Positions 9,937 through 48,324 of a stretch of DNA of 64,000 nt are shown in pieces. Within the stretch, counting starts at the first letter, position 1. Every line of letters starts with the position of its first letter. Below the pieces are notes generated by a model. The model did no database searches. It was not told the DNA's origin and saw only the letters and a list, made by a program, of their open reading frames with translations. The DNA lies in the NCBI GenBank assembly GCA_919901855.1, contig CAKKQC010000002.1:40296-104295 (forward strand), given 5' to 3'. This stretch comes from a bacterium. Lineage in GTDB: Bacteria; Oederibacteriota; CAKKQC01. Position numbers and translations under genes: made by a program.

Positions 9937-10926
9937 ATGCCCCTGACCCTCGGCACGCTCCTGGAGGATCTCGAAGAGCCGCTCTCGCTGCGCCTCGTCA
10001 GCGGCGGTGCCGGCCTGGAGCGGGTCATCAAGACCCCGGACCTCAACCGGCCCGGCCTCGCCTTCTCGGGGTTCCTCGACTGGTTCCCCCCGGACCGCCT
10101 CCAGGTCGTGGGGAAGACCGAGGTGACGTTCTGGAAGACGCTTCCCGCCAAGGTGCGCCAGGCGCGGATCCAGGAGGTCCTCAAGCTCAAGCCGGTGGGG
10201 TTCATCGTCTGCCACGACCAGGAGCCGCCCCGGGACATCTGTGCCGCGGCCGACGCGGCCGGGATATCCGTGCTCGCGAGCCCGGTGCCCACGATGAAGT
10301 GCATGAGCGAGCTCATGCTGCACCTCGAGGAGAAGCTCGCGCCGAGCATGACCGTGCACGGAAGCCTCATGGACACTTACGGCGTCGGGGTCCTCATCCT
10401 CGGCGACTCGGGGATCGGGAAGAGCGAGTGCGCGCTCGCGCTCCTGAACGTGGGCCACCGGCTGGTGGCGGACGACGTCGTCGAGATCCGGCGGACGCCG
10501 GAGAAGACCCTGCTCGGCGCCGGGATCAAGGCCCTGCGCTACCACATGGAAATCCGCGGGCTGGGCATCGTGGACATCCAGCGGCTGTTCGGGGCGCGGG
10601 CCGTCCGCGAGCACAAGCTGGTCGACCTCGTCGTCCAGCTCGTGCCGTGGGAGCCGGGCAAGCTCTACGACCGCACGGGACTCGAGCAGCAGACGCACAC
10701 GATCCTGGACGTGGCGCTCCCCATCCACGTGGTGCCCGTCAAGACGGGGCGGAACCTGGCCGTGCTCGTCGAGGTCGCGGCCATGAACTTCCGGCTGAAG
10801 CAGATGGGCGTGAACCCCGCCGAGAGCCTCGACGAGGCCGTGCTGCGGGAGGTCGCCCGGGACAACGCGCCGCCGCCGCGGCCGGCGGCCGGGCCGTCGC
10901 GCCACAAGCGGCACGAAGAGCGGTAG
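9937..10926 (+). CDS. hprK: HPr kinase/phosphorylase
   Basis: 329 aa. Walker A GDSGIGKSE. HprK C-terminal kinase-domain motifs (LVADD, EIRGLGI). Confidence 0.9.
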   Translation: MPLTLGTLLEDLEEPLSLRLVSGGAGLERVIKTPDLNRPGLAFSGFLDWFPPDRLQVVGKTEVTFWKTLPAKVRQARIQEVLKLKPVGFIVCHDQEPPRDICAAADAAGISVLASPVPTMKCMSELMLHLEEKLAPSMTVHGSLMDTYGVGVLILGDSGIGKSECALALLNVGHRLVADDVVEIRRTPEKTLLGAGIKALRYHMEIRGLGIVDIQRLFGARAVREHKLVDLVVQLVPWEPGKLYDRTGLEQQTHTILDVALPIHVVPVKTGRNLAVLVEVAAMNFRLKQMGVNPAESLDEAVLREVARDNAPPPRPAAGPSRHKRHEER

Positions 10927-10940
10927 CCGGAGCTCCCCGC

Positions 10941-12248
10941 ATGAACCTCAAGGATCGCCTGCCGGGGCCCCTGTACCGCTTCCTGTATCCGGGCATCGCG
11001 CTCAAGCGCTGGAGCTTCCTTCTCATCGTGAGTTCCGTCGTCCTGATCGCCGGCGCTACCGGGATCACGGGCGAGGCCCTCACCGGGCGCACGTTCCACG
11101 TCCGCTCGCTCCAGCGGATGGAGCGCAACGTGCGCCGCCACTGGACCGGGCTGCGCGCGCTCGACCGGTGGCTCATCGCGCTGGGGGCGATCGGCATGGT
11201 CTTCGCCGTACGGCGCGGCTACTACGCGATCCTGACCGTCGTCCTGCCGCGCGGCGAGCGGGACCTCGTCCGGCTCGCGTACCAGCGGGCGCGGCGCAAG
11301 CGGGGCCCCAGGATCGTGGCCATCGGCGGCGGGACCGGGCTGCCGAACCTGCTCACCGGGCTGAAGGAGTACACGGACAACCTCACCGCGATCGTGACCG
11401 TGGCCGACGACGGGGGGTCGTCCGGCCGCCTGCGCAAGCAGTTCGGCATCCTGCCGCCCGGCGACCTCCGGAACTGCCTCGTCGCGCTGGCGGACGAGGA
11501 GCCGCTCATGAGCAGGCTATTCCAGCACCGGTTCTCGAAGAAGGGCGACCTCGAGGGGCACACCTTCGGCAACCTCTACCTGACGGCGCTGGCCGAGATC
11601 TCCGGGGACTTCACGACCGCCCTCGCCGAGTCCCACCGTATCCTGGCAGTCCGCGGCCGGGTCGTGCCCGTGACCCCGCACCTGGTCCAGCTCGCGGCGA
11701 AGCTCAGGAACGGCCGCACCGTGCGCGGGGAGAGCCGGATCGCGAAGGCGGGCTCGCCGATCACGGGCGTCCACCTCATCCCGGCCCGGCCGCGCGCAAA
11801 TCCCGAGGCCGTCCGCGCGATCGCGAAGGCGGACATCATCGTGTTCGGCCCCGGGAGCCTGTATACGAGCATCGTGCCCAACCTGCTCGTGCCAGAGATC
11901 CGGGAGGCCATCGTGGATTCCCGGAACCTCAAGCTATACGTCTGCAACATCATGACCGAGCCGGGGGAAACCGACGGGTTCACGGCCGGGGACCACGTCG
12001 AGGTGCTCGTCCGGTACCTCAAGGGCAAAGCCCCCGACGCGGTCGTGGTGAACGTCGAGATGCCCGATGACGGGCTCCTGATCCGGTACCGGACCGAGCA
12101 CGCGGAGCTCGTGCTCAACGACGAGATCCGCATCCGTCAGCTTGGGAGCCGCGTGGTCCGGGGCCGGGTCCTGAGCGAGCGCGCGGACTTCATCCGCCAC
12201 GACTCCGCCAAGCTCTCCCGCGTCATCATGAAGTACGCGGTGATCTGA
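10941..12248 (+). CDS. yvcK: YvcK/CofD-like gluconeogenesis factor family protein (UPF0052) with N-terminal TM segment
   Basis: ATG 10941 lies 15 nt after the hprK stop. IVAIGGGTGLPNLLTGLK...VADDGGSSGRLR...LPPGDLRNC are YvcK/CofD-family motifs. An N-terminal hydrophobic helix precedes. The long 649-aa ORF from 10299 is an out-of-frame overlap with hprK. Confidence 0.85.
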   Translation: MNLKDRLPGPLYRFLYPGIALKRWSFLLIVSSVVLIAGATGITGEALTGRTFHVRSLQRMERNVRRHWTGLRALDRWLIALGAIGMVFAVRRGYYAILTVVLPRGERDLVRLAYQRARRKRGPRIVAIGGGTGLPNLLTGLKEYTDNLTAIVTVADDGGSSGRLRKQFGILPPGDLRNCLVALADEEPLMSRLFQHRFSKKGDLEGHTFGNLYLTALAEISGDFTTALAESHRILAVRGRVVPVTPHLVQLAAKLRNGRTVRGESRIAKAGSPITGVHLIPARPRANPEAVRAIAKADIIVFGPGSLYTSIVPNLLVPEIREAIVDSRNLKLYVCNIMTEPGETDGFTAGDHVEVLVRYLKGKAPDAVVVNVEMPDDGLLIRYRTEHAELVLNDEIRIRQLGSRVVRGRVLSERADFIRHDSAKLSRVIMKYAVI

Positions 12249-12448
12249 GGTCGGCGCTCCCAATCCCCTTCCCCGGCATGATCTATCCGTCCAGCCCCGC
12301 CCGTGGGGTGGGGTATCATGGGGTAGCCATGGGCATGCCCAGTGCCACACGCGAGGTCACACATGCCGTCCCGCATCGCGCCGGCCTATCGTTGGCCCGG
12401 TCCTCTCGCGCGTCGGCTGCAAGAGCTGGGAATCGAGTGAGGCACCCG

Positions 12449-13174
12449 GTGATCGAGAGCATTCTTCTTCTCTCTTGCTTCGTTTCCGTTGCATCAACCG
12501 CTATGCCCGGTGCCGAAGGATTGTCGGTCACCACGGCTGGGAAGGCGGTTTCCCGTGAAGTCTGGAGGTGGGGAATCACCCTCGCACGCCTAGACGAAGC
12601 GGCGATGCTCGATGCTGATGGTAACACGAGGCTCTTCGATGAGCTCGTCGGCAGATGGAACTTCGACGGGACGGACATCGCTCGGCTTGTTGAGCTGGCA
12701 CTACTGCAAAGGCGGATCGAGGGACTCGAGAAGAGCATATCCTACGAGGAGAGCCTCCCGGGCCGCATGGCAGCGTCCGGTTACGCGACTCTCTATACGG
12801 AGGATGTGGCCGCAAGGCGCGAGAGTGGGCTGGGCACCAGTCAGTCTGAGCTCGCCCCGCTGCTGGAAAGGAGGCAATTACTGCTCACAGATCTCCGGAA
12901 GAAGATGGGGGTTCGATACGAGAAAGACTTTCAGGAGTGGATCTGGGAGCAATCGATCATTACGGCCTACTACGATACTTGGCACTACAACCAGTGGAGC
13001 AAAGAGAAGGATCCGTTGCCTCCGATCGAGCATTACAAGATGCTCAAGAAGATCTCCTCTCGGCTGAGTGAGGCTGAACTGGCGTTGAAGCGGCATGAGT
13101 GGCATGGCCGGTTCGAACGGGTCAAGGAGCAGGCCCGCCGGAATGACGAGCTGTGGCGCAAGAAGAAGAGCTAG
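12449..13174 (+). CDS. Hypothetical lipoprotein/secreted protein in low-GC islet
   Basis: GC drops sharply from ~12440. GTG 12449 gives VIESILLLSCFVSVASTAMPGAEG (signal peptide, possible LLSC lipobox). K/E/W-rich ~240-aa body with no recognisable domain. Confidence 0.45.
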   Translation: MIESILLLSCFVSVASTAMPGAEGLSVTTAGKAVSREVWRWGITLARLDEAAMLDADGNTRLFDELVGRWNFDGTDIARLVELALLQRRIEGLEKSISYEESLPGRMAASGYATLYTEDVAARRESGLGTSQSELAPLLERRQLLLTDLRKKMGVRYEKDFQEWIWEQSIITAYYDTWHYNQWSKEKDPLPPIEHYKMLKKISSRLSEAELALKRHEWHGRFERVKEQARRNDELWRKKKS

Positions 13175-22048: not shown

Positions 22049-23743
22049 TCAGATGTCGGCGTGCTGAAGGATCTCCTCGAGGGTGGTGGCTCCCGCGAGG
22101 AGCTTCTCGAGGCCGTCCTCGTAGATCGACTGCATGCCCGCCTTCAGCGCGGCCGCCCGGATCACGGGGGCGGGCCGGCGCTGGGTGATCAGCTCCCGGA
22201 TGTCGTCGTTGATCTCGCAGACCTCGGCGATGACGCTCCGGCCGCGGTAGCCCGTGTTGTTGCAGTACCGGCACCCGGCACCCTGCGCGCCCTTGACGGT
22301 CTTGCCCTGGAGTTCCGGCGGCAGGCCCGGCACGTCCGTCAGGGGCACCGGGACCTCGCGTTTGCAGCGGGTGCAGACGGTGCGCACGAGCCGCTGGGCG
22401 ACCACGCACCGCAGCGAGCTGGCGATGAGCGCCGGGTCCGCGCCGAGGTCTAGGAGGCGCGAGACGGCCGAGGGCGCGTCGTTCGTGTGCAGGGTCGAGA
22501 ACACGAGGTGGCCGGTGAGCGAGGCGCGGATCGCGATCTGGGCCGTCTCGAGGTCCCGGATCTCGCCCACCATGATGATGTCGGGGTCCTGGCGCATGAT
22601 GGAGCGCAGGACCGCGGCGAACGTCAGCTCGATGTCGGGGTTCACCTGGTGCTGGGTGATGCCGTCGATCTGGTACTCGATCGGGTCCTCGACGGTGACG
22701 ATGTTCTTCTCGGCGAAGTTGAGCGACGCCACGACGCTGTAGAGCGTCGTGCTCTTTCCTGATCCCGTGGGGCCCGTGAGGATGACGATGCCGTGGGGGC
22801 GCGTGATGTGCCGGCGCAGGGTCGTGAGGTCCCGCTGGGAAAACCCGAGCTGGTTGAGGTCGAGCACGACCGCGCTCTTGTCCAGGATCCGCATGACGAT
22901 CTTCTCGCCGAAGTAGGCGGGGTTCACGCCGACGCGAAAGTCGATCTCGCGTCCCTCGACGAAGATGTGGAACGCGCCGTCCTGCGGCAGGCGGTGCTCG
23001 GTGATGTCCAGCTTGCACATGATCTTCACCCGCGAGATCACGGCGGGCGCGAGGCTCTGCGGGATCCGCTGATACTCCTTGAGGACGCCGTCCACGCGGT
23101 ACCGGACGGTCATCTGGGTCTTGGTCATTTCCATGTGGATGTCGGATGCCCGGCGCTGGAGCGCCTGGAGGATGATCCCGTTGATGGCCTTGACCGCGGG
23201 CGCCTGCTCGAGCAGGTCCTCGATGCTTTCGATGTCGAGCCCGAGCTTGCGCGTGAGCTGGACGCCCTGGTCCGTGACGCCCTCGAGAAGCCGCTGGATC
23301 ATCTGCTCGCGCCAGTATTCGTGGTACTCGGCGAGCGTCTTCCGGATCGCTCCGCGGGCGGCGAGCACGGGGATGATGGGCATTTTGACCGCCCGCTGGA
23401 TCTCCTCCAGGAGGAGGAAGTCCTCGGGGGTCGCCATGGCCACGGTCATCTTGCCGTCGGCGACTGAGACCGGCATGACGGCCCGCTGCTGCGCGAGGTC
23501 CTCGGGCAGCATCGTGACGAGCCGGGGCTCCGGGAGGATCTGGTCGGCGTGCATGAACGAGACGTTCAGGTGCTCGGCGCGGACCTTGAGGGCGTCCTCC
23601 TCTTTGAGGTAGCCGAGGTCGACGAGGATCTCGTCGACGAGGGCGGACCGGTGCTCCTGCTCGCGCTTGGCGATCACGAGTTGTTCCTCGGTCACCAGGT
23701 TGCGCGCCCGGAGCGTCTTCTCGATATCGGCCTGCAGGGGCAT
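22049..23743 (-). CDS. Type II secretion / type IV pilus assembly ATPase (GspE/PilB family)
   Basis: 564 aa. N-terminal GSPII_E_N-like domain. Walker A GPTGSGKSTT. Tetracysteine motif CxxC...CxxC (CTRCKREV...CRYCNNTG). Confidence 0.9.
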   Translation of the reverse strand: MPLQADIEKTLRARNLVTEEQLVIAKREQEHRSALVDEILVDLGYLKEEDALKVRAEHLNVSFMHADQILPEPRLVTMLPEDLAQQRAVMPVSVADGKMTVAMATPEDFLLLEEIQRAVKMPIIPVLAARGAIRKTLAEYHEYWREQMIQRLLEGVTDQGVQLTRKLGLDIESIEDLLEQAPAVKAINGIILQALQRRASDIHMEMTKTQMTVRYRVDGVLKEYQRIPQSLAPAVISRVKIMCKLDITEHRLPQDGAFHIFVEGREIDFRVGVNPAYFGEKIVMRILDKSAVVLDLNQLGFSQRDLTTLRRHITRPHGIVILTGPTGSGKSTTLYSVVASLNFAEKNIVTVEDPIEYQIDGITQHQVNPDIELTFAAVLRSIMRQDPDIIMVGEIRDLETAQIAIRASLTGHLVFSTLHTNDAPSAVSRLLDLGADPALIASSLRCVVAQRLVRTVCTRCKREVPVPLTDVPGLPPELQGKTVKGAQGAGCRYCNNTGYRGRSVIAEVCEINDDIRELITQRRPAPVIRAAALKAGMQSIYEDGLEKLLAGATTLEEILQHADI

Positions 23744-24542: not shown

Positions 24543-25351
24543 CGGCGTGATGGCGCCAGGCGCCCGCGCACCAAGCGCGTTGGCGCAGCGAGCCCGAGGG
24601 CGACCATGAGGGCCAGCATCGGTCCGGCCGCGAGGAGGGGGCTGGCATACAGGCCCCAGACGAGCCAGCCGGCAATGGCGGCCAGCCCGACGCGGGCCGC
24701 GGGGTCCGCCCGTCGACCGAAGGCCGGCGGCAGGAGGGTGACGAAGGCGGCCGCCACGAGGAGGACGAGCGCCGCCGCCACTACGAGGCCGCCGTCCGTG
24801 AGGTGATGCCGGTAGAGGTCCGGCGGGTCGAGGGTGACGCTCCCGCGGGCCGTCACGGCCCCCGGGATCTCCGCGGACGCCGACACTCCTCGTGCGGCGG
24901 GAAGCCACCGGCTCGTGAACCGGCCGAATTGGCCCGGGCCCCAGCCGAAGACCGGATGCTGGGTGAACGCGAGCCGGGCCGCGGCGGCTAGATCGCTCCG
25001 GGGGATCCGGATCGCGGGCGGGACGGCGAGGACGACGGCCAGCGCCCCGGCGACGAGCGCGGCGGCGGCGAGCCGGGCCCGGAGCCGGTCCGCGCCGTCT
25101 CGCGGCGGGAAGGCGGCGCGGAGACAGATGCAGAGTAGCGGCCCGCCGACGAGGGGAATCGCCGCGCGCAGAGCCGCAGGGAAGTCCCAGGGCGCGGCGA
25201 GGCCGGCGACCTGCCATGCGGCGGCGTACGCGAGCAGGGCCCAATCGAGGACGTCGAACGGCGCGTTGCGCTTCCACGCGAAGCAGCCGGTGATAATGAG
25301 CGCGGCGGCCAGGGCAGGCAACATCGGGTTCAGGATACCATGGGACATCAT
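24539..25351 (-). CDS. Hypothetical polytopic membrane protein
   Basis: Minus ORF with about 8 hydrophobic helices (LPALAAALIITGCFAW, LLAYAAAWQVAGLAAPW, VVAAALVLLVAAAFVTLL...). Start taken at MMSHG (25351). Start and real-gene status uncertain. Confidence 0.4.
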   Translation of the reverse strand: MMSHGILNPMLPALAAALIITGCFAWKRNAPFDVLDWALLAYAAAWQVAGLAAPWDFPAALRAAIPLVGGPLLCICLRAAFPPRDGADRLRARLAAAALVAGALAVVLAVPPAIRIPRSDLAAAARLAFTQHPVFGWGPGQFGRFTSRWLPAARGVSASAEIPGAVTARGSVTLDPPDLYRHHLTDGGLVVAAALVLLVAAAFVTLLPPAFGRRADPAARVGLAAIAGWLVWGLYASPLLAAGPMLALMVALGLAAPTRLVRGRLAPSRR

Positions 25352-26015
25352 GGCGGGAAACCTGCAGGCGGTCTGCTTCGATCTCGACGGACTCCTCGCG
25401 GACACGGAGCCCTTCTACTTCGAGGCGCACCGGCAGGTCTTCGCGAAGTACGGAGTCGCCCTCACGATGGAGGAATACGCGCGCCGGTGGATCATCCTCG
25501 GCCAGCGCACGTCCGGGGCGGCCCCCGCCATGGGGATCACGGAGGACCCCGCGGTCCTGACGTTGGAGGCGAAGGCCCTGTACCGCGAGATGGTGCGTGC
25601 GGGGGTCACGGCGATGCCGCATGCGGTCGAGACGATGCGGGCGGTCTCGGCCAGGTTCCCGACGATCCTGGTAACGAACACGCCGGAAGCCGAGACCCGC
25701 CTCATCCTCGAGAAGACCGGCCTCGCGCCGTACCTGCACCACCTGGCGCCGCGCGAGTCGTACGAGAATCCCAAGCCCGCGCCCGACTCCTACCTGGCGG
25801 CGGCGCGGATCCTGGGCCGGGCCCCGGGCGGGTGCCTGGCCATCGAGGACTCGCCGCGCGGGGTGCGCGCCGCGCTCGCGGCCGGCATGCGGTGCGTGTG
25901 GATCCCCAACGAGTACACGCGCGTCGCCGAGCCTCCGCGGGGCATCCTGGCAACGCTCGGTAGCCTCGCGGAACTGGACGTGGACTCTATCGCCGCGAGG
26001 TGGACCTCGCTCTAA
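25350..26015 (+). CDS. HAD-superfamily hydrolase (beta-phosphoglucomutase-like subfamily IA)
   Basis: Motif I CFDLDGLLADTEP, motif II VTNT, C-terminal IEDSPRGVRAALAAGM. ATG 25350. Confidence 0.8.
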   Translation: MAGNLQAVCFDLDGLLADTEPFYFEAHRQVFAKYGVALTMEEYARRWIILGQRTSGAAPAMGITEDPAVLTLEAKALYREMVRAGVTAMPHAVETMRAVSARFPTILVTNTPEAETRLILEKTGLAPYLHHLAPRESYENPKPAPDSYLAAARILGRAPGGCLAIEDSPRGVRAALAAGMRCVWIPNEYTRVAEPPRGILATLGSLAELDVDSIAARWTSL

Positions 26016-26101
26016 GGTCGCGGACGACCTTTCGTCGAAGGTGGCGGGAATATCCGGATTCGACGCGCGAGCTGGGCCGGACTCTAGGGTCGGGGACGAC
26101 C

Positions 26102-28555
26102 TCAGAGCCCGGCGAGGAACTCCGCGAGCCGGATCGTGTCGTCCCGGAGCATGACGGCGGGCACTTCGACCTCGGCGATCGCGGCAGGAGCTAGCCCCTT
26201 GAGGTGCGCCTTCTCGCGCTTGACCGCGAGGTTAACGATTTCGCCCGTGGACAGCGTGATCGGGATGCGGCGGACGGGGATGTCGTGCTCGATGAGCTGG
26301 GCGGCAAAGGCCACGGTCTCGATGCCGCGGAGCTGGAGGTACTCGGCGGGCGTCCGGCCCTCGAGCGGCGTGGGATAGTGGAGGTTCGCCTCCGACTTGT
26401 GGCAAAAGACCTCGAAGGCCACCGCCTGTCCCGCCTGCCAGTACCGTTCGAACTTCGGTCCGGCCCCCACAGTCTGCAGCAACTCGGCGAACACCGCCGA
26501 CTCCATCCGCTCGACGAAGTACGAGACGGAGCCGGCGACGTGGCCCTCCATCATCACCGGGAACTTCCAGAGGAAGGGGACGCCCGGCGGAGCCGAGTCG
26601 AGCGAGCCACCTCCCAGCTCGCGCAGGGCCTTCTCGTCGATGGCGATGCCCGCATTGTAGAGCCGGCCCCACTTCACGTGTACGCGGTGGGGGTGCTTGG
26701 CGTACCGCGCCCTCATGTAATCCGCGATCGCGTCGTCGCGGGCGTTAAGCCGCGCAGCCCGGTTCGTGACCTCGTTCAGGAAGTCGCCCGTCGTGACGTC
26801 CCGGTAGATTTCGCCGACCGAGAGCCCGATGCCGATCCCGAGGCCGACCTTCTGGTGGGCGGCGCCCTGGACCGACAGAATCGCGCGCTTGAAGGCATCC
26901 ATGGCGGGATGACAGTAGATTCGGCCGTCGCCGACCTCCTTGCGCCACAGCGGCTCGATGCCGGTCTCGTTCGCGACCTTGAGCATCCGTCCGTAGATTT
27001 CGAGGGCGTTCGACAGCGTCTGCTGGGTTGACATCTCGGTGGAGCCGACGACGTCGATGAAGTAGACGGCGGCGCGGTTGGCCGTGCCGAGGATGAGGGA
27101 GGGGTAGACGTCGTCGTAGCAGACCGCGGCGTTCTGGCCCCACTTGTCCCGGAGTTCCCACTCGGCGTACATCTCCGAGTTGTCCAGCGGCGGCAGGGGC
27201 AGGTGCGCGAGCGTGTGGTAGTCGAGGCAGTCGGACTTGAACTTCCGGTAGGTCTCGAGGAGTTTCGGGACGCCCGGACGCCAGGCCCGTCCCGGCAGGT
27301 GGCGGGCCACCTCCCGGCGCTTCTTGAGGGCGCGGGAGGTGCGCCGCCAGCGGCGGCAGACGGCGGACATGAGGCGCCGCCAGTACATCCAGCCCGCACC
27401 GAGAAGGCCGACGGTGGTCGCGGCCGCTCCGCCGATGCCGATGGCGAGAAAGGCGCGGGCGAGGAAATCGGGATCGGCGAGCTTGTGCCGGATCTCGGGC
27501 CAGGCGGCCGGGCTGAGCAGCCAGGGGAGGATGCTGCCGACGGCCACCAGCACGAACAGCCCGCTCAGGATCAGGAACGCCTTCCGCCGTGCCGCGGCTT
27601 CGAGCTCATCGTAGATCGCGCGGTCGTGCCAGACGCCGAGCACGTCGTTCACGCGGTCGTGCAGGCCTTCCGCCGTCTCGGGCTCCTCGAGGAGCCCCGC
27701 GAGCTGGCCGGCGAAGTGTTCGTCGAGGTCGCGAACGAGAGCGGGGGTCAGCCGATAGGGGTTGGAGGTTTCCAGGACTTGCTGGACCAGGTCGCCGACA
27801 TCGGGGGGCGGCGAGGCGCGCCGGAGCGCGAACGGGGCCAACGGGTTCGCGAGGAGGCGGAGGGCCGTCCGGTTGCGGCGAACGCCGGACAGCAGGCGGG
27901 CGGTCCACGTGACGAGCTGGTCGTTCAGGTCGTCGAACGCTTCCCGGATCTTGGCCGGCGCGACCATGCGCCGGTAGATCTCGTCCGCGAGCACCCGCAT
28001 CGCCTGGAGCAGGGTGGCGAGGAAGAACGGATGCGTCGTGTCGCTCGTGCGTTCCTCGACCTGGGCCCGGCCGAGCAGGCCAAGTTTGGCCATGGGGCCG
28101 CCGTCCCCCGTGCCGACCATGTACCCCTTGAGCACGCCGAAGCCTCCCTTCGTGAACAGCTCCTTCGTGACCGAGACGTAGAAGGCGGACGGGAAGACGA
28201 ACCGCATGCTACGGAGGGCGGGCGGCAGGTCGAACGAGTCCTCGTCCCCGGCTGGCGCGGCCTCCAGGGCCTTCCCCGTATCCGGGGCGGCGGCGCGCCG
28301 TTCCATGGGCAGTTTCTCGTCGCTCTTCCGGACGGCGTCGATCACGTCGCCGAGGTTGATCCGCGAGGCGAGGTCCTCGATCGTGTGCACGTCGCCGGGG
28401 AGCACGAGGGAAACGAAGACAGCGCGGTCGAGGACGGCGTCCTCCCAGGCGAGCAGTTTGACCCGTTCGGTCACCTTGAGGGTGCCTGTGACCGCGTCCA
28501 TTAATCTACATTCTAGGTCCGATGCGTTCACGCCTGCCACGGCTTTCCCATCCAT
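26102..28555 (-). CDS. Membrane-anchored class III adenylate/guanylate cyclase domain protein with unknown N- and C-terminal domains
   Basis: 817 aa from ATG 28555 (low-GC leader upstream). About 340-aa N-domain, two TM helices (FLILSGLFVLVAVGSILPWLL; FLAIGIGGAAATTVGLLGAGWMYW), then a cyclase core: VYFIDVVGSTE (metal Asp), KEVGDGRIY, GLGIGIGLSVGEI, GDFLNEVTNRAARLNA. About 190-aa unknown C-terminal domain. Confidence 0.7.
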   Translation of the reverse strand: MDGKAVAGVNASDLECRLMDAVTGTLKVTERVKLLAWEDAVLDRAVFVSLVLPGDVHTIEDLASRINLGDVIDAVRKSDEKLPMERRAAAPDTGKALEAAPAGDEDSFDLPPALRSMRFVFPSAFYVSVTKELFTKGGFGVLKGYMVGTGDGGPMAKLGLLGRAQVEERTSDTTHPFFLATLLQAMRVLADEIYRRMVAPAKIREAFDDLNDQLVTWTARLLSGVRRNRTALRLLANPLAPFALRRASPPPDVGDLVQQVLETSNPYRLTPALVRDLDEHFAGQLAGLLEEPETAEGLHDRVNDVLGVWHDRAIYDELEAAARRKAFLILSGLFVLVAVGSILPWLLSPAAWPEIRHKLADPDFLARAFLAIGIGGAAATTVGLLGAGWMYWRRLMSAVCRRWRRTSRALKKRREVARHLPGRAWRPGVPKLLETYRKFKSDCLDYHTLAHLPLPPLDNSEMYAEWELRDKWGQNAAVCYDDVYPSLILGTANRAAVYFIDVVGSTEMSTQQTLSNALEIYGRMLKVANETGIEPLWRKEVGDGRIYCHPAMDAFKRAILSVQGAAHQKVGLGIGIGLSVGEIYRDVTTGDFLNEVTNRAARLNARDDAIADYMRARYAKHPHRVHVKWGRLYNAGIAIDEKALRELGGGSLDSAPPGVPFLWKFPVMMEGHVAGSVSYFVERMESAVFAELLQTVGAGPKFERYWQAGQAVAFEVFCHKSEANLHYPTPLEGRTPAEYLQLRGIETVAFAAQLIEHDIPVRRIPITLSTGEIVNLAVKREKAHLKGLAPAAIAEVEVPAVMLRDDTIRLAEFLAGL

Positions 28556-28577
28556 GGCGGGATGGTCAGGTCCCCCG

Positions 28578-29741
28578 TCAGGGCATCCGGACCAGGTGGA
28601 ACCGCCCGTCCGCGCTGGATTCGCGCGCCTTGAGGCACGTGAGCGCGCTTTCGAGGCCGGCGGCGATAGGCGTGCGTGGGGCGCAGCGCCCTTCCAGGAC
28701 ATCGACGAAGTTGCGGCACAGGACGGCGTCGCCGCCGAAGTGGGCGTCCTGGCCCGGCAGCGGTACCCGCTCGGTTTTCGCACGGTGGTGCCAGTGGATG
28801 AACAGGGTCCCGGCGTACCAGTCGAACTCGAGCGTGCCCCGGTAGCCGTACAGCCTGGCGCCGCGGCGCGCGGCGTTGCGGCGCGCGAAAAAGTTCTGGT
28901 GGTAGACGGTCTGGGCGCCGTTCTCGTACTCGATAAGGCAGGCGCCCATATCCTCGTTCCGGATGCCCTTCGCGTAGACGCACAGCCGCCAGTCCCGCCA
29001 GCCCGGCCGGGCGCCGGGAGCGATCATGGACCGCGAATTGAAAGGGCTCTCGGGGCAGGTCTTCCGCTTGCGGCAGTCCCGGCACCGGAGCCCGAAGGGC
29101 ATCGTCCCGCCCCATACGCGCTGCGCGTTCATGGCCGCGACCCGTTTCGGCTTCGACCCCGCCAGGTACGCGAGGTAGTCGAGGTCGTGCGTGGCCTTCT
29201 GGAGCCACAGCCCGCCGACCTCGTCCCAGTTCCGGTACCAGCCGCCGAAGTAGACGTCACCATATGGAACGTCGTTGAATGCCACCAACTGCTCGATCGT
29301 GCCCAGCCGCCCAGAGTCCACGATCACCTTCGCCTTCTCGACCAGGGGGGAGACGCGCAGCGGAAAGGACACGACGACCGGCGGAGCGCCACGGCGCCGG
29401 AACGCGTTTCGAAGCGCGCGGAGCTGAGGCATCGAGATCGCGACCGGCTTCTCGAGGAAGAGCGGGAGGCCGCGCTTCGCCGCCTTGACCGCCATCGGCG
29501 CGTGCAGGAGGCACCGGGTTCCGATCATGATCCCGTCGAGATCCTTCCGCGCGAGCAGGCCGTCCTCCCCGGCGTGGAAGACGGCGTCCTTAAGCAGCTC
29601 CGGATGCTTCGCCCGCAGCGCCTCGCCCTGCGGGTCCGCGACCGCGACGACCCGGAACCCGCGATCCATCCGCGCGCACTCGCGGGCCACGCCCGAGATC
29701 CGGTTCCCGCACCCGATGATCCCGATGTTGATGGTGGTCAC
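28578..29741 (-). CDS. Gfo/Idh/MocA family NAD(P)-dependent oxidoreductase
   Basis: GTG 29741 (VTTINIGIIGCGNRISG Rossmann motif). EKP motif (LFLEKPVA). GTGA overlap with the upstream gene stop. Confidence 0.8.
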   Translation of the reverse strand: MTTINIGIIGCGNRISGVARECARMDRGFRVVAVADPQGEALRAKHPELLKDAVFHAGEDGLLARKDLDGIMIGTRCLLHAPMAVKAAKRGLPLFLEKPVAISMPQLRALRNAFRRRGAPPVVVSFPLRVSPLVEKAKVIVDSGRLGTIEQLVAFNDVPYGDVYFGGWYRNWDEVGGLWLQKATHDLDYLAYLAGSKPKRVAAMNAQRVWGGTMPFGLRCRDCRKRKTCPESPFNSRSMIAPGARPGWRDWRLCVYAKGIRNEDMGACLIEYENGAQTVYHQNFFARRNAARRGARLYGYRGTLEFDWYAGTLFIHWHHRAKTERVPLPGQDAHFGGDAVLCRNFVDVLEGRCAPRTPIAAGLESALTCLKARESSADGRFHLVRMP

Positions 29742-30835
29742 GGTCCCGTCGACTCGCAGAGGTGCATGACCCAGCGGACGCGCTCGAGCATGACCTCGGA
29801 CGCGCCCTGCGGGAACTCGTCCGAGATCCCGAGGACGAGCCGCGGGTGGAAGAGCTTGATCACCTGCCTCACGCACGCCTCGAACTCCTCCTCGGAGTGG
29901 TACGGCATGAAGAGGAGGGCCGGGATGCCGTCGAGCAGGACCTTGTCCCCGATCGCGGCCTTCATCTCCTCGAGCGTGACGTCGCCCTGCGGCGTCGGCG
30001 TGAGCGCCTCGAGGCCGTCGAAGGGCAGGTCCTTGAGGTACGGGAGGAGGGGCTTGAAGTAGCCGTCGATGTGGACGTGAGTGTAGATCCCGTCGCGCCG
30101 CAAGCCTCCCGAGCGCTTCTCGTAGTAGGGGAGGTAGTATTTCTCGAAGTACTTCGGCGACAGCAGGGCCGAGTGCACGTTCTCGCCGAAGTTCACGATG
30201 TGGACGACGTCCGCGTTCGCCCTGAGCTCGTCGTACAGCGGGTCGTAGGAGGCGTCGACGGCCTTCATCGCGTCCTCAACGACGTTGGGAATCTCGTGAA
30301 GCGCGACGACGAGGTCGTCGAGCGTGGACCAGCTCTGCGCGAGCGCCTGGTAGGGCATCTTGGGGACCCAGAACTGCGGCTCGCCGCGGTCCCCGAGGTT
30401 CGCGGCGCCCTTGAGGAAGGCCTCGCGGTTGAAGTGGTGGGTCGTGCGGGCGCACAGCCACCCGAGCGCTTTGAGGTCGGCTTCGGTCGCGACCGGGAAC
30501 CTGACCGTCCGCCACGCCTTGTCCGAGGTGAGCTGGCTTTCCTCGACCAGGTTCCCGAACGGCGTCTCGACGACCTTGCACGCGTGCTCGCCGTCGCCCG
30601 TGTACCGGATCTTGACCTCCGGCGCGTGCCGGGTCTCGATGGGGTAGGGCATACCCGTGTAGTAGTGCGTGTATCGCATCGAGACCCGGAGGTCGTCGTA
30701 GAACTCGAGCAGGGACATGCCCCGGAGCCGCGGCGAGATGTCGCCCAGCCGCTGGTGCATGTCGTACCAGGGCTCGATGCGGGGCTGGAAGAAGACGCGC
30801 GGGTTCGGGCGCCCAGCAAAGATATTCAGGTTCAT
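29738..30835 (-). CDS. Uroporphyrinogen decarboxylase (URO-D)-like family protein
   Basis: About 365 aa from ATG 30835 (MNLNIF...). URO-D/MtaA-like C-terminal features (LVLGISDEFPQGA). Low-confidence family call. Confidence 0.5.
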   Translation of the reverse strand: MNLNIFAGRPNPRVFFQPRIEPWYDMHQRLGDISPRLRGMSLLEFYDDLRVSMRYTHYYTGMPYPIETRHAPEVKIRYTGDGEHACKVVETPFGNLVEESQLTSDKAWRTVRFPVATEADLKALGWLCARTTHHFNREAFLKGAANLGDRGEPQFWVPKMPYQALAQSWSTLDDLVVALHEIPNVVEDAMKAVDASYDPLYDELRANADVVHIVNFGENVHSALLSPKYFEKYYLPYYEKRSGGLRRDGIYTHVHIDGYFKPLLPYLKDLPFDGLEALTPTPQGDVTLEEMKAAIGDKVLLDGIPALLFMPYHSEEEFEACVRQVIKLFHPRLVLGISDEFPQGASEVMLERVRWVMHLCESTGP

Positions 30836-30962
30836 CTCACGCTTGGTCAATCCCTCAACCTCCGCTCCGTTTGTGGCTCCCAGCCATCTCCGCTATGATA
30901 GCGCCGGTTTGACTCGGATGACGTCCTGGACAGGCAATCACAGGTAAGGCAAGGAGCGCCCC

Positions 30963-33038
30963 ATGGAACACGTAGGCCCTTCCCTCTTCATGCTCGGCGG
31001 GTTCGGCACGATCCTCGTGGCCCTCGCCGTGCTCATCTTCCTCTACAACTCCATCGCCATCGTGGGCGGCGACCAGATCGCCGTCCTCGAGCGCCGGTGG
31101 CTGGGCCGGGGCATGCCCGAGGGGCGCGTGGTGGCCATGCGCAACGAGGTCGGCGTCCAGGGCCGGATCCTGGGCCCGGGCCTCCACCTCCTGATCCCGT
31201 TTCTCTACACGGTCGAGAAGGTGCCCATGATCAAGATCGGCGAGGACGAGGTGGGGCTCGTGGACGCCATCGACGGCAAGCCGATCCCGCCGGGCCGGAT
31301 CTTTGCCAAGGTCGTGCAGGGCCACAACCTCTATCAGGACGGCGAGGCGTTCCTGACCAACGGCGGCGAGAAGGGGCCCCAGCTCCAGATCCTGCCCCCG
31401 GGGCTCTACCGCGTGAATCCGTACCTCTTCAAGATGACGAAGGTCTCGTCGATCGAGATTCCGAGCTCGCGCATCGGGCTCGTGATGGCGCGCGACGGGG
31501 AGCCGATGCCGTCGGGCCGCCTCCTCGCGCGGCGCGCCGAGGGCCACGACAATTACCAGAACGGCCAGGGATTTCTCGAGAAGGGCGGGCAGAAGGGCCC
31601 CCAGATCGACATCCTCCTGCCGGGCACCTACCGGATCAACACCCGGCTCTTCCAGATCGAAATCCGGGACGCCACCGTGATCCCGACGAAGAAGGTCGGT
31701 CTCGTCACGGCGCGGGACGGCGAGCCGCTCCCGACCAACGAGTACGTGGCCAAGATCGTGGTCGGGCATCGGGAGTTCCAGGACGCGGCCGGGTTCCTCG
31801 CGGCCGGCGGCCAGCGAGGGCCGCAGCTCGGGTTCCTGCGTCCGGGCACCTACTACATCAACCCGCTCATGTTCGACGTGGCGCCCGACTCGGTGGCCGA
31901 CGTCGAGCGCGGGTTCGTGGCCGTCATCGTCTCCAACGTCGGGCTCGATCCCGCGGAGTCGCCGAAGGTCAAGGCGGCCGCCGTCGCCGGGACGGACCCG
32001 CTGCGGGCCGGCGTCGAACGGTACGTCGTGGACGCCGGGTACCGGGGCATCCAGCGCGAGGTGGCCGGGCCCGGCACCTACTACCTCAACAAGCTTGCGT
32101 ACATTCCGCACATCATCCCGACTACGAACATCACGATCGACTGGGCGGACGAGGCGAGCAGCGGCGGACGGGGCCCGAGGATCTTCAACCCGCTCGCGAT
32201 CGTGTCCAAGGACGGGTTCGAGATGACGATCTCGGTCAAGGTCATCATCCGCGTCCTCCCCGAGCAGGCGCCGCTGATGGTCGCCCGCATCGGGACTATC
32301 GAGAACCTGATCGAGCACGTCATCCACCCGCTCATCGACTCCTCGTTCCGCAACCAGGCCTCCTCGTCGGAAGCCATGAAGTTCATGCAGGACCGGCACG
32401 AGGAGCAGCGGAAGGCCGAGACGCACATCCGCGAGGAGCTCGAGCGGTACCATGTCCAGTGCGTGAGCGTGCTCATCTGCCAGATCGGGCTTCCCGAGCG
32501 GCTCATGGAGACGCTGACAAACAAGGTCGTGGCCGCCCAGCAGATGTCCATGTTCGACTCCCAGAAGCAGGCCGAGGACCGGCGCCGCGACATGGAGAAC
32601 ACGAAGGCGCAGGCGAACCTCCAGCCCTCGCTGGTGAAGGCCGAGATCGACGTCGCGATCGCGAACCAGAAGAAGCAGGAGGCGGTCATCCTCGCCGAGG
32701 GCCGGGGCACCTCGACCCGGCTCGAGCAGGAGGGAATCGCGGCCGGTATCTCCGCCGTCGGCAAGGCCGAAGGCGAGAAGATCCGGGCGATCGGGCAGGC
32801 CACGGCCGAGGCCTACGCCAAGCAGGCGGCCGCGGTCGGCCAGACCCCGCTGGCGCTCATCGAGATCATGAAGCGGGTCTCGGAGGGCAACGTCAAGATC
32901 ACGCCGGACATCATGGTGTCCGGCGGCGACGGCAGCGGGGGCGGGGCGTCGTCGAACATGCTCGCGGCGTTCATGGGGTCGATGATGGCGGGGACGCTGA
33001 AACCGCCCGCCGTGGTGGAGCCTCCCAAGAAGGTCTGA
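30963..33038 (+). CDS. SPFH/band-7 (flotillin-like) membrane protein with three internal ~75-aa repeats
   Basis: RBS aaggagcg. N-terminal TM (LFMLGGFGTILVALAVLIFLY). Three repeats of G.V.ARDGEP.P......A...GH..YQ....FL..GG.KGPQ...L.PGTYRINP.LF. C-terminal SPFH core plus coiled-coil/flotillin tail (EQRKAETHIREELER...). Confidence 0.85.
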   Translation: MEHVGPSLFMLGGFGTILVALAVLIFLYNSIAIVGGDQIAVLERRWLGRGMPEGRVVAMRNEVGVQGRILGPGLHLLIPFLYTVEKVPMIKIGEDEVGLVDAIDGKPIPPGRIFAKVVQGHNLYQDGEAFLTNGGEKGPQLQILPPGLYRVNPYLFKMTKVSSIEIPSSRIGLVMARDGEPMPSGRLLARRAEGHDNYQNGQGFLEKGGQKGPQIDILLPGTYRINTRLFQIEIRDATVIPTKKVGLVTARDGEPLPTNEYVAKIVVGHREFQDAAGFLAAGGQRGPQLGFLRPGTYYINPLMFDVAPDSVADVERGFVAVIVSNVGLDPAESPKVKAAAVAGTDPLRAGVERYVVDAGYRGIQREVAGPGTYYLNKLAYIPHIIPTTNITIDWADEASSGGRGPRIFNPLAIVSKDGFEMTISVKVIIRVLPEQAPLMVARIGTIENLIEHVIHPLIDSSFRNQASSSEAMKFMQDRHEEQRKAETHIREELERYHVQCVSVLICQIGLPERLMETLTNKVVAAQQMSMFDSQKQAEDRRRDMENTKAQANLQPSLVKAEIDVAIANQKKQEAVILAEGRGTSTRLEQEGIAAGISAVGKAEGEKIRAIGQATAEAYAKQAAAVGQTPLALIEIMKRVSEGNVKITPDIMVSGGDGSGGGASSNMLAAFMGSMMAGTLKPPAVVEPPKKV

Positions 33039-33588: not shown

Positions 33589-33993
33589 TCAGTCCGTGAT
33601 CGCAACCACCCGGATTCCTTGCGGACGGTGGATGGGCTTCGAGGGTTTCTCGAGGGTCACGAGCTCTTCGGCCCCCACCATGAGCGCGGCAGCCACGTGG
33701 AGCGCGTCGCTGGCCCCGAGTCCGTACCGGTTTGCCTCCTCCAACGCCCGTCGGACAAGCTTCCCGTCGACTTCCGCCCACCTGGAAACTGCCCCGAAGA
33801 ACGCGTTGTAGAACTGAACCTCGGGTTCCTTGCGATGGTACGTGGCCTTGGGCAGGACTTCGAGCTTCACGATGTCGCTGGACGCGAAAGTCCGTGCCGG
33901 GTCATCCAGAATCTGGATCGCCCGCCGTTGGAGTGGATGACTGCCTCTGGCGGCCGCGATCAGCACGCCCGAATCAAGGAACGTGAGCTTCAC
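33589..33993 (-). CDS. vapC: PIN-domain toxin VapC
   Basis: MKLTFLDSGVLIAAARG (PIN N-terminal Asp), DALHVAAALMVGAEELVTLE. 134 aa. Confidence 0.85.
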   Translation of the reverse strand: MKLTFLDSGVLIAAARGSHPLQRRAIQILDDPARTFASSDIVKLEVLPKATYHRKEPEVQFYNAFFGAVSRWAEVDGKLVRRALEEANRYGLGASDALHVAAALMVGAEELVTLEKPSKPIHRPQGIRVVAITD

Positions 33994-45896: not shown

Positions 45897-46052
45897 ATGC
45901 GGCTGGCGGGTAGCGATATTAGAGTCGAGACTCTTGATGACGTGTTGGTGAAGGCCGAGCGAATCTACGGCGAGGTTGAGAAGACGCTGAAGAAAGTGGC
46001 ACCCGAGTACTCGAGGCAGGCCCGCCGAGGGCGAAAGAAGGAGAAGAAATAG
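45897..46052 (+). CDS. Small Lys-rich ORF preceding the methyltransferase (possible regulatory/leader peptide)
   Basis: 51 aa from ATG 45897 (MRLAGSDIRVETLDDVLVKAERIYGEVEKTLKKVAPEYSRQARRGRKKEKK). Its 3' end contains the MTase RBS aaggagaag. Stop TAG overlaps the MTase GTG. Confidence 0.3.
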   Translation: MRLAGSDIRVETLDDVLVKAERIYGEVEKTLKKVAPEYSRQARRGRKKEKK

Positions 46053-47275
46053 TGTCCTTCTCCGTCTCTTCACCCGCGACCGTGATCGACCTCTTCTGTG
46101 GGGCGGGAGGGCTTTCGCTAGGACTGCGACATGCCGGTTGGAGAATTGTCCAGGCGATCGACAGCGATCGCTCTGCCGTTGAAACCTACCGGAACAACCT
46201 TGGTGATGACGTTGTCCAAGCGGAGATTAGCGCTAAAACCGTGCTGTGCGATTCCCTCCTGATTGCTGGTGGACCGCCGTGTCAGGGCTTTTCATCTGCG
46301 GGCCTGCGGAAGAACGGTGACGGCAGAAACAGCCTGGTCAAGGTATTCGCCACTCTGATCGCTCGATATCAACCGAGGGCGTTTCTGTTCGAGAACGTGG
46401 AGGGGTTCTTGACCGCCGAGGGAGGGGCGCGCATCGTTGATCTACTTGGAACGCTCTTGTCCGCTGGCTACAACATACATCTCCGGAAGATTAATGCGGC
46501 CAATTACGGAGTTCCCCAACATAGAAAGCGTGTGATTGCAATCGGTGGCCTCGGCTGGCAGCCGACATTTCCGGAACCGATCTGCCACGCTCGGGGCATG
46601 CCTGGGGCGTCGCGATCGTTCCGCCACCTCCCCCCGGGCCCGTCATTGGCCGAGGCGCTCAGGGGGTTACCAAAGCCAAGCAAAGAACCCCCAGGCGTAC
46701 CACAAGGCCATTTCGAAACTCCGCTGAGTAGCGTTGACGCCGACAGGATTTCACGCCTAGAGATTGGCCAGACAATGCGCGACTTGCCGGGCGCGCTACG
46801 ACATAAGAGCTACCAAAGGCGGGCGTACCGACGCGTCATGGACGGGACGCCGACGGACAAGCGCGGCGGTGCTCCGGCTGGACTTCGAAGGCTCCGTCCC
46901 GATGAACCGTGCAAAGCCATCACGGGAGCCGCCCGGAACGAATTCGTGCATCCTTTGAAAGACCGCTTCCTCACAATCCGCGAGTGTGCGCGGCTGCAAA
47001 CCTTCCCAGACGATTTTGAGTTCTTCGGCTCATCAACCGAGCAATCCACTCTGATCGGGAATGCCGTTCCTTCATTGTTGGCCGAGGTTGTTGGCGCTCA
47101 TCTACTGAAGGAATTGTTGGCGGAACCAGCAAGAGCCGACGGGGGAAAGCTCCTGAGTTTCATTCCAACAATGGCTGAAGGCATGAGTCCCATTCTGGCC
47201 AGGGTAACGCAGCAGGTTCATACCCTCTTTGGAGGCGCGTCCCCGAGTGACGTGCAGCTACCCCTGTGGGTCTGA
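46052..47275 (+). CDS. DNA (cytosine-5)-methyltransferase (Type II R-M modification subunit)
   Basis: Motif I DLFCGAGG, motif IV GGPPCQGFS, motif VI ENV, motif VIII QHRKR, C-terminal RECARLQTFPDDFEF...GNAVP. Confidence 0.9.
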   Translation: MSFSVSSPATVIDLFCGAGGLSLGLRHAGWRIVQAIDSDRSAVETYRNNLGDDVVQAEISAKTVLCDSLLIAGGPPCQGFSSAGLRKNGDGRNSLVKVFATLIARYQPRAFLFENVEGFLTAEGGARIVDLLGTLLSAGYNIHLRKINAANYGVPQHRKRVIAIGGLGWQPTFPEPICHARGMPGASRSFRHLPPGPSLAEALRGLPKPSKEPPGVPQGHFETPLSSVDADRISRLEIGQTMRDLPGALRHKSYQRRAYRRVMDGTPTDKRGGAPAGLRRLRPDEPCKAITGAARNEFVHPLKDRFLTIRECARLQTFPDDFEFFGSSTEQSTLIGNAVPSLLAEVVGAHLLKELLAEPARADGGKLLSFIPTMAEGMSPILARVTQQVHTLFGGASPSDVQLPLWV

Positions 47276-48324
47276 CGCTAACGGAACGGTCGGTGGTTGA
47301 GAAGGCCCGTTCTGGGGGTGGGGCTGACTTGGCCACCACGCTCGATGACGAGGTCTGTGCCTATCTGGTGTCCGTGATTGTCCATGACCTTGGTCTTGCC
47401 GCCAGGATTCCGGAGATGCGGGCCAAGCCAGGGCCCTTCTTCGCCTCGGATTCACCCGAGAAGCTACGACTAAAGGGAGTGGAGTTCTGGGCTGTTCTGG
47501 AACGGCTTGTTGCGGCCAAACGTGACGCGGTCACGTACTTCTCTTGCTTGGCAGCGCTCCATAAGAGCCGTCTGAAGTACGCCAGGATATTGCGGAGCCA
47601 GCCCATACCAACTATGGATCAAGTCGGCCCGAGGGGGCTTCTCCAATACGGCTCGATGAGCCCGCAGGCCTTGACAGGATTGCTGCTGTGGAGGAAGTGG
47701 TTGTACGACATCGACAACCGGGCTGCACAGGAAACCGGCTATCTTTTCGAACCGATCATCGCGCATTCAATAGGCGGTGCCCCGTTCAGTTCGAGTCAGA
47801 GTCCGATAAGGCGGCATGACGATCGCGGGAAGAGAAGGCAAGTGGACTGTGTCAGGGATAAGAGAGCCTATGAATTCAAGATGCGCGTAACGATCGCGGC
47901 ATCAGGACAAGGACGTTGGCGTGAGGAGATGGACTTTCCACTTGACTGCCGCAAGAGCGGCTTCAAACCCGTTCTGCTCGTTTTCGATGGAACGCGCAAT
48001 CCCAAGCTCACCGAGCTCACGAAAGCCTTCCTCAAGTGCGGGGGCGAAACACACGTGGGCGACCATGCATGGCAACACCTGGAGGATGAGGCGGGGGATG
48101 TGATGGCCAGGTTCCTCGACATCTATGTTCGAGGACCGATCCAAGCCCTCCTGAAGGAGGTGCCCGGAGATGTTCTTCCCGAACTTCGGTTGAAGATGAA
48201 CAAACACCGTCTTGTCGTTGCTGTTGGCGGTGAGAGTATGCAGGTCAAGAGGGCCTCGAGGAGATCAGTTGACACGGAGGACCCGATGCCCGTTGACGTT
48301 GGCGACGAATCCCCGGGAGTCTGA
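47266..48324 (+). CDS. Putative Type II restriction endonuclease (PD-(D/E)xK-like) cognate to the m5C MTase
   Basis: GTG 47266 overlaps the MTase stop by 10 nt. 352 aa with no recognisable family. Candidate PD...(D/E)xK: VDCVRD...EFK. Position and overlap are typical of R genes. Confidence 0.55.
   Translation: MGLTLTERSVVEKARSGGGADLATTLDDEVCAYLVSVIVHDLGLAARIPEMRAKPGPFFASDSPEKLRLKGVEFWAVLERLVAAKRDAVTYFSCLAALHKSRLKYARILRSQPIPTMDQVGPRGLLQYGSMSPQALTGLLLWRKWLYDIDNRAAQETGYLFEPIIAHSIGGAPFSSSQSPIRRHDDRGKRRQVDCVRDKRAYEFKMRVTIAASGQGRWREEMDFPLDCRKSGFKPVLLVFDGTRNPKLTELTKAFLKCGGETHVGDHAWQHLEDEAGDVMARFLDIYVRGPIQALLKEVPGDVLPELRLKMNKHRLVVAVGGESMQVKRASRRSVDTEDPMPVDVGDESPGV

Follow-up and report, generated by a model that had tools for sequence, protein, structure and literature searches.

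Putative membrane-anchored adenylyl cyclases of a small, highly divergent class III family in Coatesbacteria-like bacteria

Introduction

Class III nucleotidyl cyclases are the main bacterial makers of cyclic AMP (cAMP) and cyclic GMP, and are usually catalogued with the Pfam model PF00211. DUF2652 (PF10851) is a divergent class III cyclase-like family that is recognised only by profile methods; it retains the metal-binding, substrate and transition-state residues though it is missed by standard cyclase models (PMC4886424). Here, we report on a cyclase-like gene located at 26102..28501 on the minus strand of a 64,000 nt stretch of contig CAKKQC010000002.1, the whole of which is referred to as the window. 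The gene encodes 799 aa plus a stop codon, and its product is a 100 % match to the NCBI protein MEK7474299.1, a hypothetical protein from a metagenome-assembled genome (MAG) of Candidatus Coatesbacteria.

A preliminary description of this DNA had proposed that the gene encodes a class III cyclase with a membrane hairpin and two large domains of no recognised type, acting together with the metabolic genes upstream. With a probability of roughly 0.6, we interpret the protein as a highly divergent class III nucleotidyl cyclase that is anchored in the membrane and, as an adenylyl cyclase, most likely makes cAMP from ATP.

Results

A remote class III cyclase core

The three motifs on which the preliminary description was built translate exactly as it quoted them: FIDVVGST at 27038-27061, KEVGDG at 26924-26941 and GDFLNEVTNRAARLNA at 26741-26788. 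The kinship of the surrounding core (residues ~470-630; 26612..27094, minus strand) to class III cyclases emerged from family profiles. An exhaustive HMMER search of 1.84 billion representative proteins with the family profile gave 16 matches, comprising 10 full-length proteins of the same architecture (781-859 aa), five fragments and a single outsider, P0019. The match to P0019 (E 6.4e-4) covered core positions 475-591, and P0019 is itself a genuine PF00211 protein (E 1.3e-14). Profile-profile comparison with hhalign gave a probability of 93-94 % for the family against P0019. Against 40 aligned PF00211 proteins, the probability was 81 % (E 1.2e-5) for the family and 93.5 % (E 2.4e-7) for the core alone. 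A hidden Markov model (HMM) of the core scored 19-40.5 bits (median 30) on all 121 of the 121 PF00211 proteins retrieved, compared with a maximum of 6.0 bits on 1210 shuffled controls. By profile methods, the core thus qualifies as homologous to class III cyclases, and we are highly confident that it is a remote member of that superfamily. Conservation within the protein also peaks in the core, where the mean top-residue frequency is 0.80, versus 0.43-0.67 elsewhere.

Several observations weigh against a cyclase assignment. PF00211 gave 0 matches at E <= 1 for the window protein, which falls short of the gathering score of this curated class III model, and none at E <= 10 in any of 12 family members, for which Pfam as a whole returned only noise. 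Every other Pfam, NCBIfam and PADLOC model failed as well in all members (E <= 1-10), and sequence searches of the PDB found no cyclase. The second metal-binding Asp and the substrate Asp are separated by a 48-residue spacer, as against 65 residues in Rv1625c. Finally, the end of the core can be mapped in two alternative ways, neither of which is supported by hhalign.

Searches of Pfam, NCBIfam, PADLOC and PDB sequences with the single protein were likewise without a match, and a PDB search with the family profile returned only spurious matches to OspA and Tom20 (E >= 0.06). A split cyclase domain was considered as well, with its final 'l-K-G-k...v-x-v-y' strands provided by the extreme C-terminus (HLKGL...AEVEVP). 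This was rejected, as neither residues 596-799 nor residues 740-799 showed any signal against PF00211 proteins in hhalign.

Because PF00211 never matches, even at E <= 10, the core is better described as remote and atypical than as the 'canonical cyclase core' of the preliminary description, of which the class III homology stands and the canonical character does not. That description had named two outcomes that would count against it. The first, failure of profile searches, came about literally for Pfam and did not for the more sensitive profile methods; the second, a match of the flanking segments to common sensor domains, did not occur in Pfam or NCBIfam.

Catalytic residues and predicted product

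All alignments agreed on one register, in which FIDVVGST falls on F-x-D-x-x-G-x-T, KEVGDG on K-x-x-G-D and GDFLNEVTNRAARL on D-x6-N-x3-R. The six catalytic residues so defined (D483, K521, D525, D573, N580 and R584) are invariant in the 15 sequences aligned. We assigned their roles following PMC4886424 and PMC2613629. D483 and D525 occupy the canonical Asp positions of the metal ligands, equivalent in role to D256 and D300 of Rv1625c, in which K296 serves the substrate (PMC2613629). K521 and D573 form the adenine-specifying Lys/Asp pair, and N580 and R584, within NRAARL, form the transition-state pair (N-x-x-x-R). The spacing is canonical throughout, at +4 from Lys to metal Asp, +7 from substrate Asp to Asn and +4 from Asn to Arg. 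At the substrate position where the family has Asp, class IIIb enzymes have Thr (PMC2613629). The preliminary description had called for the substrate-specifying residues to be checked, and they proved to be of the ATP type.

Judged from these residues, the enzyme probably makes cAMP. The same description had allowed for a cyclic dinucleotide (c-di-NMP) as an alternative output, which gained no support, as the Lys/Asp pair points to ATP and neither a GGDEF nor a DAC match was found. The family motif reads KE(V/I/M/A)GDG rather than GG(D/E)EF, and PF00990 does not match.

The protein might instead combine a cyclase fold with other chemistry, using GTP or a pyrimidine nucleoside triphosphate as substrate or releasing a product other than a 3',5'-cyclic nucleoside monophosphate (cNMP). 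Standard models miss the family, further residues beyond the canonical six are invariant (W519, R520, E522, T570, T571, N576 and R588), and mCpol, GTP cyclohydrolase III and Cmr2 are among the structural neighbours of the model, at non-significant scores. We nonetheless regard this alternative as rather unlikely, given that the Lys/Asp and Asn/Arg pairs are invariant at canonical spacing, that the best structural and profile matches are adenylyl and guanylyl cyclases, and that PADLOC matched neither Pycsar PycC nor CBASS components.

The silence of PF00211 and the shortened stretch that separates the halves of the active site would also suit a catalytically inactive pseudo-cyclase that has become a structural or receptor module. 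Invariance of all six catalytic residues within the most conserved part of the protein is the pattern typical of active enzymes, and makes such a loss of activity very improbable.

Domain architecture and structure prediction

Hydropathy analysis bore out the two-helix hydrophobic hairpin of the preliminary description. In the 799-aa protein, its helices span residues ~306-330 and ~346-372 (27386..27586, minus strand; Kyte-Doolittle peaks 2.41 and 1.74), with a loop of ~17 aa between them. The N-terminal domain, residues 1-300 (27602..28501, minus strand), consists of a long beta-hairpin and, after it, a helical bundle, and its conserved motifs include KLGLLGRAxxEER and ANPLAPFALRR. A basic helical linker (residues 373-469; 27095..27385, minus strand) follows the hairpin, as judged from alignments and from AlphaFold helices at 344-432; 12 of the 33 residues after the second transmembrane helix are Arg or Lys. 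The linker differs in length among homologues, with insertions of up to ~60 aa in the alignments, and the distance to the GDG motif is anywhere between 509 and 580, against a constant C-terminal length. Beyond the core lies a C-terminal alpha/beta domain (residues ~640-799; 26105..26584, minus strand) that has no known relatives; AFEVFCHKS, YPTPLEGR, (K/R)G and AEVEVP are among its conserved motifs.

The flanking domains are therefore somewhat smaller than first described, at ~300 rather than ~340 aa for the N-terminal and, with the core at ~470-630, ~160 rather than ~190 aa for the C-terminal domain. That they belong to no recognised type was upheld by Pfam, NCBIfam, PADLOC and PDB sequence searches. 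In particular, neither segment had a Pfam or NCBIfam match to CHASE, HAMP, GAF, PAS, cNMP-binding or 6TM modules, and the one hint was a sub-threshold match to DUF2207_C (20 bits; cutoff 33) in a distant member of the family, encoded at the locus designated L010. No relatives of either flanking domain were found by sequence outside the family among the 1.84 billion representative proteins.

An AlphaFold model built with five sequences was unusable (pLDDT 37.7), and one built with 15 sequences reached a mean pLDDT of 74. In the latter, residues 1-445 (the N-terminal region, hairpin and linker helices) were predicted with confidence save for a disordered loop at ~68-87, as was the C-terminal domain at 640-760. 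The invariant core at 470-640 was modelled poorly (pLDDT 33-63), so that the lowest confidence falls on the most conserved segment and the variable flanks are modelled well. A likely reason is that 15 aligned sequences whose core is near-invariant give little covariation signal. Foldseek searches of the PDB and BFVD gave no significant match, and the N- and C-terminal domains had no specific structural counterpart in either database. The best of the non-significant matches, obtained with a model whose core is poor, were adenylyl cyclases and other palm-fold enzymes.

Because the flanks of the hairpin are rich in Arg and Lys, the positive-inside rule predicts that both large domains are cytoplasmic. 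The hairpin would therefore be an anchor or a dimerisation element rather than a periplasmic sensor.

Proposed mode of action

Class III enzymes that carry all six catalytic residues in one chain work as head-to-tail homodimers with two symmetric active sites. Since other enzymes with six residues per chain act in this way, we propose by analogy that the protein would form a membrane-tethered homodimeric adenylyl cyclase, in which each chain would contribute its metal-binding Asp residues to one site and its Lys, Asp, Asn and Arg to the other. The hairpin, with its loop of ~17 residues, would tether the protein to the inner membrane with the large domains in the cytoplasm, and the enzyme would therefore have no periplasmic domain with which to sense an extracellular ligand. 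The C-terminal alpha/beta domain, the basic linker of variable length and the lineage-specific helical domain at the N-terminus probably control activity, alone or in combination, and may do so in response to a signal from within the cell or from the membrane, or to a partner protein. A more speculative version, which we hold only tentatively, is that of a lineage-specific second-messenger synthase with a minimal, re-engineered core, to which flanking domains of new fold would relay a signal from inside the cell or from the state of the membrane. Its product or nucleotide specificity might depart from that of a usual cAMP producer in spite of the Lys/Asp pair.

A tiny, lineage-restricted family

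A word-indexed search recovered five relatives of the protein among 5.8 billion protein clusters, and a separate profile search recovered 11. Together with the HMMER search, these results define a family of ~20 sequences from Coatesbacteria-like MAGs, of which the 15 aligned are 41-75 % identical overall. Across 185,579 species genomes, only four loci encode a member, all from Coatesbacteria or uncultured MAGs. The family is tiny and lineage-restricted.

Start codon and a conserved box upstream of the gene

The longest open reading frame (ORF) of the cyclase-like gene spans 26102-28783 on the minus strand. The preliminary description had favoured an 817-aa ORF, and the corresponding ATG (28555) does exist, 22 nt past the stop codon of the oxidoreductase gene upstream. 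Homologue N-termini line up instead at ATG 28501 (MDAVTGTLKV...), the start also annotated for MEK7474299.1, and we therefore take this as the true start; the gap to the oxidoreductase stop is then 76 nt. In L002, the locus of the closest relative, the counterpart of the upstream ATG is out of frame. A block reading ccATGGATGGG(a/c)AAGCC is kept around this codon in the window (28541-28558, minus strand) and in L002 (1923-1940), with its ATG in frame at one locus and out of frame at the other, and it may be a regulatory site rather than coding sequence.

The AT-rich leader that had been pointed out before the gene, cctagaatgtagattaATG, is present and directly precedes ATG 28501, and hence lies inside the 817-aa ORF that was proposed along with it. 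Within this leader, at 28510..28515 on the minus strand and 8 nt upstream of the start codon, we identified the -10-like hexamer TAGAAT as a candidate promoter element. The pattern TA(G/A)AAT recurs 6-14 nt ahead of the start codon in six orthologous loci, namely the window, L001 (858-863), L002 (1966-1971), L003, L007 and L012, of which three have GTG starts. It is a rare pattern, with only four occurrences on both strands of the 64-kb window (68 % GC). As a consensus scan found no full sigma-70 promoter in 25900-31100, it is the conservation of the box that speaks for it.

These features suggest that the gene is probably transcribed from its own promoter and is not an obligatory part of an operon with the genes upstream. 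Given the position of the box, we hypothesize that the mRNA may be leaderless or carry a very short leader, and its recurrence hints at leaderless or near-leaderless transcripts in this lineage.

Genomic neighbourhood

As described previously, the interval 26102-30835 holds three minus-strand genes in the same direction. Pfam likewise agreed with the earlier naming of the two upstream genes. Directly upstream of the cyclase-like gene is a Gfo/Idh/MocA oxidoreductase of 387 aa (28578..29741, minus strand, start GTG 29741; PF01408, PF22725 and PF02894), the best NCBIfam match of which is inositol 2-dehydrogenase, far below the cutoff. It is preceded by a URO-D-superfamily gene encoding 365 aa (29738..30835, minus strand, start ATG 30835; PF01208, E 4.1e-7), which also shows weak, below-cutoff matches to MtaA/CmuA methyltransferases. 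The GTG of the oxidoreductase overlaps the TGA of the URO-D-like gene as GTGA, again as first reported, and because of this overlap the two genes are predicted to be translationally coupled.

The preliminary description had gone on to suggest a metabolite-sensing unit with a cNMP or c-di-NMP as output. In such a unit, the upstream enzymes would make or consume a metabolite sensed by the flanking domains of the cyclase. The three genes are co-directional, two of them apparently coupled, the same order is found in L002, and the loci L003 and L005 have a Gfo-family gene nearby as well. The order of URO-D-like, oxidoreductase and cyclase-like genes is, however, confined to the window and L002, and L002 is too close a relative to count as independent evidence (89 % identity for the URO-D-like protein, 80 % for the oxidoreductase and 75 % for the cyclase-like protein). 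The arrangement is absent in L001, L003, L005, L007, L008, L010 and L013, and the upstream genes differ in the more distant members, which are 42-49 % identical: ThuA and a non-orthologous Gfo gene on the opposite strand in L001 and L003, FtsX and TP_0789-like genes in L007 and L013, RF-1 in L005 and VIT1 in L008, while the 37 %-identical member of L010 neighbours an NHL-repeat protein. Elsewhere in the family, nearby Gfo genes reach only 23-30 % identity to that of the window and are not orthologues; those of L003 and L005 lie on another strand or 2.6 kb off. The 76-nt gap with its conserved -10-like box also argues against a unit, and the Lys/Asp pair and motif pattern, with no GGDEF or DAC match, fit a cNMP cyclase. 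We thus find the proposed unit unsupported and improbable, and treat the oxidoreductase as a neighbour of the putative adenylyl cyclase gene, not as a demonstrated functional partner.

The sole recurrent neighbour is a convergent HAD-family hydrolase gene, followed by a gene for a Wzy_C protein. In the window, the HAD gene lies at 25350..26015 on the plus strand (PF13419 and PF00702), and it recurs in L001, L002, L007 and L013 at 54-56 % identity. Further on, at 22049-23743 on the minus strand, is a gene for a T2SSE-family ATPase with an MshEN domain, a c-di-GMP-binding module; the ATPase is 75 % identical to its L001 counterpart. The block of HAD, Wzy_C, unknown and ATPase genes is syntenic in several Coatesbacteria-like contigs. 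With identities of 54-56 % (HAD) and 75 % (ATPase) between loci, the recurrence looks like synteny by descent in related genomes.

This neighbourhood bears on one more alternative, in which a single gene would serve as an anti-phage or abortive-infection module by joining a cyclase to an effector that inserts into the membrane, like a Pycsar cyclase fused to its transmembrane effector. One protein does combine a cyclase-like core with a transmembrane hairpin, its helical part weakly resembles alpha-pore-forming toxins (Foldseek E about 0.8), and toxin-antitoxin genes stand beside the gene in L004 and L008, with a PIN gene 5 kb off in the window. Against this, PADLOC and BFVD gave no match, the toxin similarity is non-significant, and the HAD, Wzy_C and MshEN/T2SSE ATPase neighbourhood is kept across lineages that differ by ~50 % in protein identity. 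A chromosomal neighbourhood kept in this way indicates the behaviour of a core gene and not of a mobile defence gene, and we consider a defence role highly unlikely.

The toxin-antitoxin genes themselves (PIN, ParE and DUF433/DUF5615) are found no more than a few kb from the cyclase-like gene at three loci (window 33589-33993, minus strand; L004 2337-4511; L008 7255-7847), which is probably a coincidence. In L005 (the P0010 locus), the family gene at 10485-12898 on the minus strand has downstream of it a convergent gene for a 625-aa protein with no Pfam match, together with one for a Macro-domain protein. Divergent from the URO-D-like gene of the window is a gene for a 691-aa SPFH/Band 7 protein (30963-33038, plus strand). 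In its N-terminal half, three tandem repeats of ~65-70 aa can be made out by eye before the SPFH domain, with the pattern …DG.P.P.GR..A….GH..YQ.G..FL..GG..GPQ...L.PG.Y..N..LF; Pfam recognises the SPFH part only. The GC content drops to 0.585 at 46001-48000 from ~0.68 elsewhere in the window, and this segment may be foreign or atypical DNA. Scanning the window for Rfam families and tRNA genes gave no matches.

Discussion

Our analysis points to a rare and divergent class III nucleotidyl cyclase that probably acts as an adenylyl cyclase. The family evades PF00211 wholly yet keeps every catalytic residue. Since the model is blind to it, cyclase censuses of candidate phyla that depend on PF00211 would under-count signalling enzymes. 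The two confidently predicted flanking domains, being without relatives, may represent new regulatory modules. In practical terms, the value of the family is modest, given its few sequences from uncultured Coatesbacteria-like bacteria and its probably conventional enzymology.

Pycsar PycC pyrimidine cyclases and GGDEF diguanylate cyclases belong to the same broad palm/cyclase fold superfamily. The family differs from both in having no PADLOC or Pfam match to them and in carrying the Lys/Asp purine-type pair, and no adjacent effector gene was conserved among the loci compared. By these features, the enzyme is not of the Pycsar, CBASS or GGDEF type.

In comparison with the class III cyclase homology domain, as found in Rv1625c, Rv1900c and Rv1264 of Mycobacterium tuberculosis and Ma1120 of Mycobacterium avium, the family lacks a PF00211 match, has a shorter spacer between the metal and substrate Asp residues, and carries an unusual segment of 25-30 residues after the N-x3-R helix. 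Known class III members carry HAMP, GAF, PAS, CHASE or 6TM modules, none of which is matched by the flanks of this family.

The nearest detectable sequence relatives of the core are the P0019-type cyclases of Bacteroidota, in which an N-terminal PF00211 domain is followed by a transmembrane segment and then by a large C-terminal region. They share with the family core the short spacing from K-x-x-G-D to G-D-x-x-G-D-x-V-N, although identity is only ~25-35 % and extends over just 110-120 residues. In the P0019 type, the cyclase domain comes first and PF00211 recognises it easily (E 1e-14), whereas the domain order of the present family is different.

DUF2652 offers a precedent for a small bacterial family hidden from the standard cyclase models. 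Its Pfam model matched neither the window protein nor any of the 12 family members searched, and the two differ in build: DUF2652 proteins are soluble, single-domain proteins of ~250 aa that lack the Asn, whereas the proteins described here are membrane-anchored, reach ~800 aa and retain all six residues.

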